In this document: in pieces, positions 20,341-24,164 of the stretch
Position numbering within the stretch: position 1 is the stretch's first letter
Layout of the letters: every line of letters starts with the position of its first letter
From: a virus
IMG/VR virus record: IMGVR_UViG_2974637116_000001
Length of the DNA: 64,000 bases
Strand: one strand, 5' to 3'
Position numbers and translations under genes: made by a program
Notes under the pieces: generated by a model
The model's database searches: none
What the model was told of the DNA's origin: nothing
The model's input: the letters and a program-made list of their open reading frames with translations, nothing else

Positions 20341-20664
20341 ATGAGGATTCTAATTGCTTTCATTGCTTCATTTTTCATCGCTTTACCCGCATGGGCAGTA
20401 GATGTACAAATGGGTGCTGGCGGCAACCTAGTATTTGAACCGAATGAGATTACAATCTCTGCAGGTGATACTGTGCATTTTATTAATCAAGCACTACCTC
20501 CTCACAACATTATTGTTGAGGCACGTCCAGATCTCTCTAGAGAATCATTACTATTTGCTCCAGGAGAATCGCAGGATGTTGTATTTGCTGACGCAGGGGA
20601 CTATAATTTCTTTTGTGGTCCTCACCAGGGCGCAGGCATGACTGGCGTTGTTCACGTAAATTGA
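20341..20664 (+). CDS. petE: Plastocyanin (auxiliary metabolic gene)
   Basis: Signal peptide 'PAWA|VDV' and intact Cu ligands: H in 'PPHNI', and C, H, M in 'FFCGPHQGAGM'. Confidence 0.95.
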   Translation: MRILIAFIASFFIALPAWAVDVQMGAGGNLVFEPNEITISAGDTVHFINQALPPHNIIVEARPDLSRESLLFAPGESQDVVFADAGDYNFFCGPHQGAGMTGVVHVN

Positions 20665-20673
20665 GTTAATTAA

Positions 20674-21150
20674 ATGAAAGTTGGAATGATTGGTTTAGGT
20701 CGTACTGGCGAAGGCATGTCCCGCCGTATGATGGAAAAGGGAATTGAAGTCTGGGGTTACAGTAGTACTAACTACGAGAATGCCTGTGGACAATATGAAG
20801 CAGGACATATCAGTGGATGTGTAACTTCAATAGAGTATCTTGTTCAAGCAGTTAAATCTGATAGCAAGCAATACACTAGTGCGGGTAGAATTCCTGGTAT
20901 TTTTCAGATGACATGTCCAGAGCAAAAAGCAGAAGACACTCTAGATGAGTTACTACCATTACTCGAAGAGGGTGATATTATTATTGATCATAGCACCAGT
21001 GACATCTCAAAATGTCAGGAACTAGAAAAGTATTGTAGTAAGTTAGGTATCTCATATATCTTCTCTGGAGTATATGGGGCAACCCATGCTGTCAATGCAT
21101 GTTCTAAAATTTTCCAATCGCTATCACCAGGTAATGCCACACGAATTTGA
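20674..21150 (+). CDS. Truncated 6-phosphogluconate dehydrogenase-like protein (NAD(P)-binding domain only)
   Basis: 'MKVGMIGLGRTGEGMSRR' and 'LLEEGDIIIDHS' match the Gnd Rossmann domain. It is only 158 aa and has no C-terminal domain. Confidence 0.75.
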   Translation: MKVGMIGLGRTGEGMSRRMMEKGIEVWGYSSTNYENACGQYEAGHISGCVTSIEYLVQAVKSDSKQYTSAGRIPGIFQMTCPEQKAEDTLDELLPLLEEGDIIIDHSTSDISKCQELEKYCSKLGISYIFSGVYGATHAVNACSKIFQSLSPGNATRI

Positions 21151-21328
21151 TCCATGCGAAGCACCTGTAGAAGGTGAAGTTGATAAGTGGGGGTTTACTA
21201 TTAAACCTACTATTAGTGATGATGAATTAATTCTTATGTGTCTTAAGAATGCTCCTTGTGGTAGTGATAGAAAACAGGCAATAAAGTTAATTAAAATTTA
21301 CGAGGAAAAAATCAATGACTTTATCTGA
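21134..21328 (+). CDS. Hypothetical protein (64 aa, MPHEFDPCE...)
   Basis: The ATG at 21134 overlaps the end of the gnd-like gene and is a more likely start than 21074. Confidence 0.55.
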   Translation: MPHEFDPCEAPVEGEVDKWGFTIKPTISDDELILMCLKNAPCGSDRKQAIKLIKIYEEKINDFI

Positions 21329-21446
21329 TGTCCTACTTTTCGGATCACTACCATTCATATGTGCCACCATTTATTTCGGGCACAGAAAAGGTGAAAATGT
21401 CTATTATGAAAGTGACAAATATGACGGAAACGGAACAGCGCATTAA
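21315..21446 (+). CDS. ndhP: NdhP-like microprotein (NDH-1L small subunit homolog), 43 aa, absent from the ORF track
   Basis: MTLSDVLLFGSLPFICATIYFGHRKGENVYYESDKYDGNGTAH: one TM helix plus 'FG.R.G...Y.[ST]D.Y.GNG[ST]AH', the NdhP C-terminal signature. GAGG RBS at 21302-05. Confidence 0.85.
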   Translation: MTLSDVLLFGSLPFICATIYFGHRKGENVYYESDKYDGNGTAH

Positions 21447-21636
21447 GATGAGACATGCGTTTGCCATGTCATCATTTGCTAGAATGTTCACCCCAAACAG
21501 ATTAACAAGTGAAATGAGGAGTCTTTGTCATGAATGGTCTAAGATTGAAGAACAACCACCTACAGGTGATTTGTATCAAGTAGATCGTTATTTTTTAGAA
21601 CTTTGGAAAACATGGTCATTGAAATCAGCATTATAG
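21421..21636 (+). CDS. Hypothetical protein (start at 21421 or 21448)
   Basis: The 5' extension to 21328 overlaps ndhP. In-frame ATGs lie at 21421 and at 21448 (TAAG-ATG after ndhP). Confidence 0.55.
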   Translation: MTETEQRIKMRHAFAMSSFARMFTPNRLTSEMRSLCHEWSKIEEQPPTGDLYQVDRYFLELWKTWSLKSAL

Positions 21637-21692
21637 TAATCTATTGTTTATTTGGATTAATTCTATTCACCTTATCGGTTTTACAAGAATGA
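21612..21692 (+). CDS. Single-TM microprotein (26 aa)
   Basis: MVIEISIIVIYCLFGLILFTLSVLQE; its TGA overlaps the next ATG (ATGA). Confidence 0.45.
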   Translation: MVIEISIIVIYCLFGLILFTLSVLQE

Positions 21693-21841
21693 TGTTGCAA
21701 TTTGCTAGGTTTTGTGGGACTGTACTTAACAACCCATATGGATTAGGAATCATGGCATGGTGCCTGGTTTTCGTTCCCATTATAGGAATGTGGGCAGTTC
21801 ACAAATATGATTGGCAACATTGGGAACCTTTCAAAAAATGA
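21689..21841 (+). CDS. Single-TM microprotein (50 aa)
   Basis: MMLQFARFCGTVLNNPYGLGIMAWCLVFVPIIGMWAVHKYDWQHWEPFKK; ATGA-coupled at both ends. Confidence 0.6.
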   Translation: MMLQFARFCGTVLNNPYGLGIMAWCLVFVPIIGMWAVHKYDWQHWEPFKK

Positions 21842-22047
21842 ATTTATTATTACGACCTCTAGATAATGTTGCTGATCCTGTGTGGTCAGTAATTATCTGT
21901 GTGATACTTGCCGTTGCTGGTGCTTTGTTTGTAGTTATATACATACTAAGAGAAGCATTTGCAGAGTTAGAAGATGGGAGCGTTGACACCACCGAGCAGG
22001 AAGAGCTGCTACAACTTCCGAGTGACGGAGATCAATCGTGTTCTTGA
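21838..22047 (+). CDS. Single-TM small protein (69 aa)
   Basis: MNLLLRPLDNVADPVWSVIICVILAVAGALFVVIYILREAFAE...; ATGA-coupled. Confidence 0.55.
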   Translation: MNLLLRPLDNVADPVWSVIICVILAVAGALFVVIYILREAFAELEDGSVDTTEQEELLQLPSDGDQSCS

Positions 22048-22435
22048 TGGTGATACTATCGATGTCACTATTGACCTCGGGTTTGATTTATACAAGAAAG
22101 AAAGAGTTAGAGTTGCAGGCGTTGATACACCAGAGAAAAGAACGAGAAACTTAGAGGAGAAGGCTCTTGGAATCGACGCAACAAACTGGCTCAAAGAAAA
22201 ACTCGAAGGCACGTTGGCTGGTGATGATGAGTTGTCTGTTAGGACTGAACTTGTTGGTGGCACTGGCAAATACGGGCGTCTTCTGGGTTGGCTTTACATT
22301 GGGGACGACAGTGTGTCCCTTAACGAGCAAATGATTACCGAAGGGTATGCTCACGCATACGATGGTGGCACCAAGGATATGAATCTGGAAAAACTAAAAG
22401 AGATTCGTAGAGCACACGGAACATTAGTAGAATGA
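21974..22435 (+). CDS. Staphylococcal-nuclease-like (thermonuclease) endonuclease
   Basis: 'RVLDGDTIDV', 'RVRVAGVDTPE', 'KYGRLLGWLY', 'MITEGYA'. Confidence 0.85.
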   Translation: MGALTPPSRKSCYNFRVTEINRVLDGDTIDVTIDLGFDLYKKERVRVAGVDTPEKRTRNLEEKALGIDATNWLKEKLEGTLAGDDELSVRTELVGGTGKYGRLLGWLYIGDDSVSLNEQMITEGYAHAYDGGTKDMNLEKLKEIRRAHGTLVE

Positions 22436-22518
22436 TGAGCGGTTTATTTGTATTTGGATTTATTATATTGCTTACAATAGGAATGGAAATTACTTTGCCT
22501 GTGAAGAATAGAAGATGA
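22432..22518 (+). CDS. Single-TM microprotein (28 aa)
   Basis: MMSGLFVFGFIILLTIGMEITLPVKNRR; ATGA-coupled to both the nuclease and gp17. Confidence 0.5.
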   Translation: MMSGLFVFGFIILLTIGMEITLPVKNRR

Positions 22519-24164
22519 GTACAACTGAACAGTATCTTGGTAATCCCAATCTAAAGAAAGCAAACGTTGCTACAGAGTTTTCTCCTGAAGAAGTGCAGGA
22601 GTATCTTAAGTGTGCGGATGATCCTGTATATTTTATCCAGACATACATTAAAATTGTTTCTCTGGATAAGGGTTTGATTCCTTTTGACATGTATGACTTT
22701 CAGGTTGATATGACCAGGAAGTTTCATGACAATAGATTTAATATTGCAAAGTTACCTCGTCAGTCTGGTAAGTCCACTATCGTTACATCATACCTTCTTT
22801 GGTATGTACTTTTTAATGCGAATGTTAATGTCGCTATTCTAGCAAACAAAGCAGCAACCTCCCGCGAGATGCTGCAAAGATTACAACTAAGTTATGAAAA
22901 TCTCCCCAAATGGCTCCAGCAAGGTATCCTCCAATGGAACAGGGGCAGTCTGGAATTGGAGAACGGCAGTAAAATCATGGCTGCCTCTACTAGTTCTAGT
23001 GCCGTCAGGGGCATGTCTTTTAATGTCATATTTCTGGACGAGTTCGCGTTTGTTCCGAACCATATTGCTGACCAGTTCTTTTCATCTGTCTATCCTACTA
23101 TATCTTCTGGTAAAAGCACAAAGGTAATTATCATCTCCACGCCACACGGGATGAATATGTTCTACAAGTTATGGCATGATTCTGAGAGAGGTAAGAATGA
23201 ATATATACCAACAGAAGTTCATTGGTCTGCTGTTCCTGGTAGAGATACTGCGTGGAAAGAACAGACTATCAAGAACACTTCAGAACAACAGTTCAAGGTT
23301 GAGTTTGAATGTGAGTTCCTTGGTTCTGTTGATACCCTTATTAGTCCTAGTAAGTTGAGGACTATGCCGTACATAGATCCCATTGCACAAAACAAAGGAC
23401 TTGCAATTTATAAACGTGTTGAACCTGAACATAATTATATCATAACAGTTGACGTTGCTCGTGGCACAAGTCAAGATTACTCGGCGTTTTGTGTTATGGA
23501 TACTACGACAGTACCATATGAACTAGTTGCTAGATATAGGAATAATGAAATCAAACCTATCATCTTCCCCAATGTTATTATAGATGTGGCGAGAAATTAT
23601 AACTATGCGTATATTTTATGTGAGGTAAATGACATTGGTGGACAGGTTGCAGATATTATCCAGTTTGATTTAGAGTATGAAAATCTTCTGATGGTAGCAA
23701 TGCGTGGTCGTGCTGGTCAACAACTTGGTCAAGGTTTCTCTGGCAAGAAAACACAACTGGGTGTCAAGATGTCTAGTGCGGTTAAGCAGGTTGGATGCTC
23801 TAATCTTAAAGCATTGATTGAGGAAGACAAACTCATCATTCCTGATTATGAAACTATTGCAGAACTAACTACTTTTATTGTTAAAGGTCAATCATTTGCT
23901 GCAGAAGATGGATGTAATGATGACCTTGCTATGTGTCTTGTCATTTTTGCCTGGATGGCGATGCAAGAATACTTTAAACAGATGCACGATAATGATATAA
24001 GACAACGTATCTATGATGACCAAAGAGAAAATATTGAACAGGATATGGCACCGTTTGGATTTATGTCAGACGGATTAGAAGATGATCATATTATTGATGC
24101 TCAGGGTGAGGTGTGGCAGGTTGCGGAATACGGCGATAAATCCTATATGTGGGAGTTTAGGTAA
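22515..24164 (+). CDS. gp17: Terminase large subunit gp17
   Basis: Walker A 'LPRQSGKST', Walker B 'IFLDEFAF', 'STPHG', and nuclease motif 'DDLAM'. Confidence 0.97.
   Translation: MSTTEQYLGNPNLKKANVATEFSPEEVQEYLKCADDPVYFIQTYIKIVSLDKGLIPFDMYDFQVDMTRKFHDNRFNIAKLPRQSGKSTIVTSYLLWYVLFNANVNVAILANKAATSREMLQRLQLSYENLPKWLQQGILQWNRGSLELENGSKIMAASTSSSAVRGMSFNVIFLDEFAFVPNHIADQFFSSVYPTISSGKSTKVIIISTPHGMNMFYKLWHDSERGKNEYIPTEVHWSAVPGRDTAWKEQTIKNTSEQQFKVEFECEFLGSVDTLISPSKLRTMPYIDPIAQNKGLAIYKRVEPEHNYIITVDVARGTSQDYSAFCVMDTTTVPYELVARYRNNEIKPIIFPNVIIDVARNYNYAYILCEVNDIGGQVADIIQFDLEYENLLMVAMRGRAGQQLGQGFSGKKTQLGVKMSSAVKQVGCSNLKALIEEDKLIIPDYETIAELTTFIVKGQSFAAEDGCNDDLAMCLVIFAWMAMQEYFKQMHDNDIRQRIYDDQRENIEQDMAPFGFMSDGLEDDHIIDAQGEVWQVAEYGDKSYMWEFR

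Follow-up and report, generated by a model that had tools for sequence, protein, structure and literature searches.

A small cyanomyovirus gene, often missed in annotation, encodes a homologue of the NDH-1L subunit NdhP

Introduction

The window examined in this study, a 64,000-nucleotide stretch of viral DNA from IMG/VR record IMGVR_UViG_2974637116_000001, contains a 43-codon open reading frame (ORF) that is crossed in another frame by a longer one, ORF 21328-21636. A preliminary description of the locus proposed that the short frame encodes NdhP, a subunit of the cyanobacterial NDH-1L complex, which raises the questions of whether so short a frame is a gene at all, which of the two overlapping frames is under selection as protein-coding sequence, and what a phage might gain from carrying it. 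In the phototrophs that are most abundant in the ocean, NDH-1L drives both respiration and cyclic electron flow. Within the complex, NdhP and NdhQ sandwich NdhD at the distal end, with contacts to NdhD, NdhF, lipids and a carotenoid, and NDH-1L disassembles when either NdhP or NdhQ is deleted (PMC6992706; PMC4131877).

As a kind of gene, phage ndhP is already known from papers that appeared from 2013 onward and cite work of 2011-2013. One of these (PMC3877843) stated in 2013 that metagenomic studies had suggested cyanophages harbouring ndhI, ndhD and ndhP, another (PMC6596454) relays from Schwarz et al. 2013 that homologues of sml0013/NdhP occur in all cyanobacteria "and some cyanophages", and a third (PMC10452541) lists ndhP among cyanophage genes. 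A 2025 paper annotated ndhP in phage S-SCSM2R, gave P-TIM68 as its only previous occurrence and called it "uncommon" in cyanophages (PMC12801897). The copy described here is the same kind of auxiliary gene as in these reports; the present analysis adds that ndhP is common, that an insertion is diagnostic of its main Synechococcus-phage form, and that neighboring genes have been given false 5' ends in several public annotations.

Results and Discussion

Reading frame and identity of the encoded peptide

The 2.2 kb surrounding the ORF share 90.7% identity with Synechococcus phage S-CAM8 and about 86% with S-MbCM6, and the large terminase (22515-24164) is 97.5% identical to that of S-CAM8; the window is therefore assigned to a T4-like cyanomyovirus (Kyanoviridae) closest to S-CAM8. 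Its genes run in the order petE, truncated gnd, a PHROG 1201 gene, the 43-aa ORF, a PHROG 593 gene, small membrane ORFs, an endonuclease gene and terL (Table 1).

Table 1. Features at and around the ndhP-like gene in the window
Feature	Coordinates	Strand	Evidence
petE (plastocyanin)	20341..20664	+	Pfam PF00127, E 9.5e-21; PetE label in S-CAM8 and S-MbCM6
Truncated gnd, NAD(P)-binding domain of 6-phosphogluconate dehydrogenase only	20674..21150	+	Pfam PF03446, E 6e-16
Upstream small gene, PHROG 1201	21134..21328	+	Match covers residues 21-79 of ORF 21074-21328; end overlaps ndhP start by 14 nt
GAGG, possible Shine-Dalgarno sequence	21302..21305	+	9 nt before ATG 21315, read from the sequence
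ndhP-like gene, 43 codons plus TAA	21315..21446	+	ORF, translation, PHROG 2173, PDB NdhP, hhalign, dN/dS
Single transmembrane helix, residues 3-24	21321..21386	+	AlphaFold2 model
Phage-specific insertion E27-N28-V29, cytoplasmic tail	21393..21401	+	Alignment with phage and cellular copies
Conserved C-terminal NdhP motif YYESDKYDGNGTAH	21402..21443	+	Aligns to [FY]YD[ST]D[KQ]Y[DH]GNG[ST]AH of cellular NdhP and 6khi_P
Spurious 5' extension of ORF 21328-21636	21328..21447	+	dN/dS 1.15; variation peaks at ndhP codon position 3
Downstream gene, PHROG 593 core	21448..21636	+	dN/dS 0.21 from ATG 21448; ATG in most relatives; PHROG 593 match

From ATG 21315 to the TAA at 21444-21446, the short frame translates exactly to MTLSDVLLFGSLPFICATIYFGHRKGENVYYESDKYDGNGTAH (43 aa), as the preliminary description had quoted it, and the GAGG that it named as a ribosome-binding site is present upstream. 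This GAGG is not kept in relatives, where AGGA/GGAA-type sequences or no obvious Shine-Dalgarno sequence are found instead. The frame shares 14 nt with the ORF upstream, whose stop codon lies at 21326-21328. Since dozens of ORFs of 25-60 aa occur within the same 3 kb, a length of 43 codons is by itself not beyond chance, and it is conservation and homology that set this frame apart.

When the single peptide was searched against all PDB chains (phmmer, E up to 10), only two matches were returned, and both were NdhP of the Thermosynechococcus (T.) elongatus NDH-1L complex (6khi_P, E 2.9e-4; 6hum_P, E 2.6e-3). A profile of six phage sequences found NdhP in the PDB at E 1.9e-5, with the next match at E 0.059. 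Comparison of the phage profile with a cyanobacterial NdhP profile (hhalign) gave a probability of 99.6%, an E-value of 2e-23 and 62% identity. Among prokaryotes, a degenerate-pattern scan of one genome per species identified 262 loci encoding relatives. All 80 of the 80 cellular loci retained carried an NdhP-type cyanobacterial sequence, a few of them in metagenome-assembled genomes with non-cyanobacterial labels, and a profile of the cellular peptides matched NdhP chain 6khi_P at E 2.6e-22, which identifies these peptides as NdhP. The window's peptide shares up to 63% identity with NdhP of Cyanobium, Synechococcus and Prochlorococcaceae, and within a picocyanobacterial sample a match was present in 148 of 151 genomes, as a single match in all but two of the 148.

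The proposal of a phage-encoded NdhP homologue is thus borne out by single-sequence, profile and profile-profile searches together with the identity of up to 63% to picocyanobacterial NdhP. The T. elongatus sequence given in the preliminary description agrees with PDB chain 6khi_P, the search for NdhP homology that it had called for is significant, and the frame is conserved across the phages in which it was found. Judged from the sequence comparisons, the 43-codon frame is a real, conserved gene of marine cyanophages and a copy of host NdhP. As a separate observation, the cyanobacterial NdhP profile weakly matches the plant chloroplast NDH subunit NDF6/PnsB4 (7wff_d, E 0.0034; 9grx_4, E 0.056), which fits the "weak similarity to plant proteins" mentioned for NdhP (PMC6596454).

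Selection on the two overlapping frames

Pairwise dN/dS (NG86) was 0.19 in the 43-aa frame, compared to 1.15 in the overlapping frame inside ndhP and 0.21 in that same frame from ATG 21448 onward. By codon position, variation within ndhP was highest at position 3 (0.158) and lowest at position 2 (0.025) across 84 copies, which represent 53 different nucleotide sequences and were drawn from the window, from the three phage records closest to it and from 80 IMG/VR contigs. These substitution patterns indicate that the 43-aa frame is the frame under purifying selection. Because dN/dS is 1.15 in one frame and 0.19 in the other, the first 40 codons of ORF 21328-21636 are spurious, as had been suggested when the locus was first described. 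The true start of the downstream gene is probably ATG 21448, one base past the ndhP stop.

It is also conceivable that the locus is dual coding, with both the ndhP frame and the frame from ATG 21328 translated and the downstream protein truly possessing a 40-residue N-terminal extension. The overlapping frame is open in 59 of 59 distinct relatives and its ATG is present in 58 of the 59, the PHROG 593 match extends along the whole of the long ORF, and synonymous divergence is lower in ndhP than in the next gene. However, enumeration from the window's codons showed that no adjacent pair of NdhP residues yields TAA, TAG or TGA in the overlapping frame. The NdhP amino-acid sequence itself thus forces the absence of stops, openness of the frame is uninformative, and its use as proof of dual coding was rejected. 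ATG 21328 is likewise a by-product, arising from a GAT or CAT codon followed by a G-initial valine codon, and the full-length PHROG 593 match is attributable to members whose annotation carries this false start. In addition to the dN/dS of 1.15, variation peaks at the second codon position of the overlapping frame, and other phages have zwf or ndhI after ndhP in place of the PHROG 593 gene. Translation of both frames is therefore very unlikely. An even less probable explanation, and one that can hardly be maintained, is that the 43-codon frame is a chance ORF or a host-gene remnant that is not translated. ORFs as short as this often arise by chance, and the peptide has no NdhP match in Pfam or NCBIfam. 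However, a genuine cyanobacterial NdhP searched against Pfam and NCBIfam likewise has no match, which indicates that these libraries contain no NdhP model, and in hundreds of divergent phages the frame is intact, unchanged in length and subject to purifying selection.

Within 21315-21636 of the window, dS among relatives was 0.31 inside ndhP versus 0.72 over codons 1-28 of the gene that follows. Possible causes of the low value are sampling by NdhP similarity, codon bias in a short gene in which two-fold codons abound, or constraint at the RNA level.

Peptide architecture and the phage-specific insertion

The AlphaFold2 model consists of the single helix and a flexible tail, and residues 1-20 have pLDDT values above 90. 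A basic pair (R24-K25) directly follows the helix, and the tail is basic, then acidic and aromatic. GFP tagging has placed the N-terminus of NdhP in the lumen and its C-terminus in the cytoplasm (PMC4131877), and under the positive-inside rule the R24-K25 pair of the modelled phage peptide fits the same predicted topology.

Compared to cyanobacterial NdhP (Sml0013 of Synechocystis 6803; T. elongatus chain P in PDB 6KHI/6KHJ/6NBY/6HUM), the phage peptide is alike in its size of approximately 40-45 aa, its one transmembrane helix, its significant sequence similarity and its C-terminal motif, FG-x-[RK]-x-G-[FY]Y-[DE]-[ST]-D-x-Y-x-GNG-[ST]-AH. The broader membership motif, FG-x-[RK]-x-G-[FY]Y-[DE]-[ST]-D-x-Y-x-G-[ND]-G-[STC]-A-H, is present as YFGHRKG-ENV-YYESDKYDGNGTAH, and the columns invariant in 51 phage and cellular sequences are all kept (F14, F21, G26, Y31, D34, Y36, G38, G40 and H43). 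The phage copy differs in being virus-encoded, in carrying ENV between the conserved G and YY, and in having K25 and E32 in place of the cellular N/G and D; its association with NDH-1L is a prediction from this likeness. The substitutions around the insertion are phage-specific (T to H/Y before R, N/G to K, and D to E).

The three-residue insertion relative to T. elongatus NdhP, noted in the preliminary description, is confirmed in the alignment with 6khi_P. It reads EN[VI] in 83 of the 83 close phage copies tabulated and ENN, END, ENY or NNF in more distant phage copies, while none of the 80 cellular loci has an insertion of this type. In the 148 picocyanobacterial genomes, matches of 114-120 nt are likewise too short to contain it, with a single 126-nt match as the exception. 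Cyanophages S-RIM8, S-RIM50, S-B64, S-SZBM1, P-SSM2 and P-TIM40 carry insertion-free copies. In the window, the copy is of the insertion-bearing Synechococcus-phage type; the tail in P-SSM2 and P-TIM40 is instead of Prochlorococcus type and ends GDGCAHDVKR, where cellular Prochlorococcus has GDGCAHDVQR. In the sequences compared here, the three extra residues after the helix are a feature of the phage lineage.

Distribution and phylogeny

The ORF was identified by tblastn in 374 phage records, all of them cyanophages, with coverage of at least 80% in 372, and a pattern scan of IMG/VR found it in 407 viral contigs. PHROG 2173, a 43-position profile of unknown function, matches the peptide end to end (E 2.6e-27). 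A TerL with 60% or more identity to that of the window phage is present in approximately 442 records, compared to 374 with the ORF, or roughly 85%, a figure that is only indicative since the collection is very redundant and the TerL and ORF record sets were counted separately. From these counts, ndhP is carried by most sequenced T4-like cyanophages and is common, not rare, in contrast to its description as "uncommon" (PMC12801897). The window's ORF is a full-length member of the cyanomyovirus cluster known as T4-GC 248 or PHROG 2173; neither cluster has a functional name, and homology adds the NdhP assignment.

In a tree built from 41 alignable columns, which are too short to fix the number of host-to-phage transfers, the phage sequences group with picocyanobacterial NdhP. 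The tree is poorly resolved, with only one inner branch reaching 95% support. Insertion-bearing sequences form a phage-only group (SH-aLRT 88), and the P-SSM2 and P-TIM40 copies nest, with weak resolution, among Prochlorococcus-type cellular copies. This arrangement suggests more than one acquisition or exchange of ndhP. The best explanation of the sequence data is that ORF 21315-21446 is a host-derived auxiliary metabolic gene (AMG), the cyanomyovirus orthologue of NdhP.

Two kinds of unusual copy were observed in IMG/VR. The 45.8-kb contig IMGVR_UViG_2619619257_000003 contains two ndhP copies (L021 and L028) approximately 9.5 kb apart on opposite strands and encoding the same peptide, which may be an inverted duplication or an assembly artefact. 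In three other contigs (L015, L016 and L035, 1501-1701), the NdhP stop is lost and the ORF runs on for 21-23 residues (PVLFEKTTCER...) into a different downstream gene.

Genomic context

The usual setting of ndhP is a cluster in which genes of electron transport and of the pentose-phosphate pathway lie together (petE, PTOX, gnd, zwf, ndhI). In the window, ndhP lies about 650 bases downstream of petE, from which two small genes separate it, in S-RIM8 ndhP is two small genes downstream of petE, and in S-B64 it is approximately 1.4 kb downstream of petE and a ferredoxin gene. The homologue sits between gnd and zwf in Bellamy, S-SM2 and P-RSM1, with PTOX annotated two genes upstream of it in Bellamy and S-SM2. 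The P-TIM40 homologue, labelled hypothetical (gp027), directly precedes the annotated ndhI and overlaps its start. The P-TIM40 locus (L165, 1504-2207) thus presents two NDH-1 subunit genes as a pair, with CP12 approximately 0.6 kb upstream past three small genes and speD after ndhI. In environmental relatives, mosaic joints fall exactly at 21314, at the ndhP start, as would be expected if ndhP moves as a unit.

The truncated gnd of the window is annotated in relatives as 6-phosphogluconate dehydrogenase, of which only the N-terminal domain is found here. Its 158 aa align to residues 1-170 of the 345-aa Bellamy Gnd with 51% identity and an internal gap of 15 aa. This remnant seems to be kept in the S-CAM8/S-MbCM6 lineage, and any activity is putative. 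The 84-aa ORF that follows it was considered as the lost C-terminal half of Gnd and rejected, as it has no similarity to that half; the records of S-CAM8 and S-MbCM6 label the PHROG 1201 gene within it hypothetical. In the window, ndhP is intact despite a truncated gnd and the absence of zwf, which indicates that a functional link to the pentose-phosphate genes is not obligatory.

Between ndhP and terL, the window contains small single-transmembrane ORFs of 29, 65, 78 and 28 aa (21603-22047 and 22432-22518). None of these ORFs (21603-21692, 21644-21841, 21811-22047 and 22432-22518) has an NdhQ match in the PDB at E up to 10, and none resembles any solved chain by sequence.

Proposed role during infection

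Contigs from marine RNA libraries that derive from relatives (85-95% alike) cover 21303-21488, with one contig spanning 21303-21416 (record 10, run X16) and another spanning 21314-21488 (record 27, run X20), and a further library (run X15) has depth over 21336-21409. This coverage, from three runs of three studies whose contigs may include DNA carry-over and are silent on translation, is compatible with transcription of ndhP in relatives.

The reading that best accounts for the observations as a whole, and which is considered quite probable, is that the peptide is a cyanomyovirus NdhP orthologue that takes the host NdhP site and keeps NDH-1L assembled. During infection, the peptide would insert into the thylakoid membrane with its N-terminus in the lumen and its C-terminus in the cytoplasm, and would sit at the NdhP site on host NdhD1/NdhF1. 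The NDH-1L form would thereby be kept or increased while host gene expression is shut down, and electron flow from ferredoxin to plastoquinone, both cyclic and respiratory, would be sustained along with ATP for phage replication. Stabilization or biasing of host NDH-1L by phage NdhP, as the preliminary description had put forward, is a reasonable proposal. A viral version of a subunit on which the integrity of NDH-1L depends also fits the view of cyanophages sustaining ATP production while redirecting carbon metabolism. Like other small photosynthetic AMGs of cyanophages (hli, psbA/psbD, petE, petF, PTOX and ndhI), ndhP encodes a host-derived electron-transport component that presumably sustains energy supply. 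However, NdhP differs from these in being an assembly or stability subunit with no cofactor or catalytic role, and in being far smaller, which explains why it escapes gene callers and HMM libraries.

Since the tail that carries the insertion packs against NdhD/NdhF, the three residues could alter or abolish normal binding, and the main rival to simple replacement of host NdhP is accordingly a peptide with tuned or antagonistic activity. According to this explanation, the insertion-bearing peptide is neofunctionalised, such that the NdhD/NdhF module remains its target but is altered by it; NDH-1M might be locked into NDH-1L at the cost of the CO2-uptake forms, or the peptide might weaken host NDH-1L as a competitor. 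Such a change would be in keeping with an E-N-[VIND] insertion that is fixed in the main clade of phage copies and was absent from every cellular copy examined, with the phage-specific substitutions around it and with the phage-only grouping of the insertion clade in the tree (SH-aLRT 88). However, the invariant NdhP residues are all retained, and the existence of insertion-free, host-like copies in P-SSM2, P-TIM40, S-RIM8 and S-B64 suggests that the ordinary function is selected, so that neofunctionalisation is judged unlikely. A broader version, in which ndhP is an overlooked near-core gene of T4-like cyanophages (approximately 85% of cyanomyovirus records) and its insertion form is tuned to shift the host NDH-1 pool toward NDH-1L, is regarded as rather doubtful. 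Viral infection shuts down carbon fixation with photophosphorylation maintained, and if ndhP were such a near-core, tuned gene, cyclic electron flow and ATP would be favoured over CO2 uptake, adding to that shutdown.

Annotation of ndhP in public phage genomes

The expectation that so small a gene would be missed by annotation is supported by a range of public records. In S-MbCM6 (S-MbCM6_098) and P-SSM2 (PSSM2_253), the ORF is annotated as hypothetical and placed in cluster T4-GC 248, whereas the S-CAM8 RefSeq record leaves it unannotated and S-B64 has no annotation at its position. In S-SKS1, S-RIM2 and ACG-2014d, the overlapping long ORF is annotated in place of ndhP, and in S-SM2 and P-RSM1 zwf is annotated across it. 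The name NdhP appears in none of 120 records listed from the 374 (the 60 best and 60 spread down the ranking). The "hypothetical protein" labels are attributable to the lack of an NdhP model in Pfam and NCBIfam. In most of the 374 records, ndhP is hypothetical, skipped or overwritten by the false 5' extension of a neighbor. With a simple NdhP profile and the ENV-type insertion, viral and host ndhP would be separable in metagenomes and the starts of downstream genes could be corrected. In S-SM2 (L169, 1508-2947) and P-RSM1 (L174, 1511-2950), the 5' end of zwf crosses ndhP in another frame, while in Bellamy ndhP is followed directly by zwf, whose start is approximately 120 nt further on; the extended 5' ends of zwf in S-SM2 and P-RSM1 are probably annotation artefacts.
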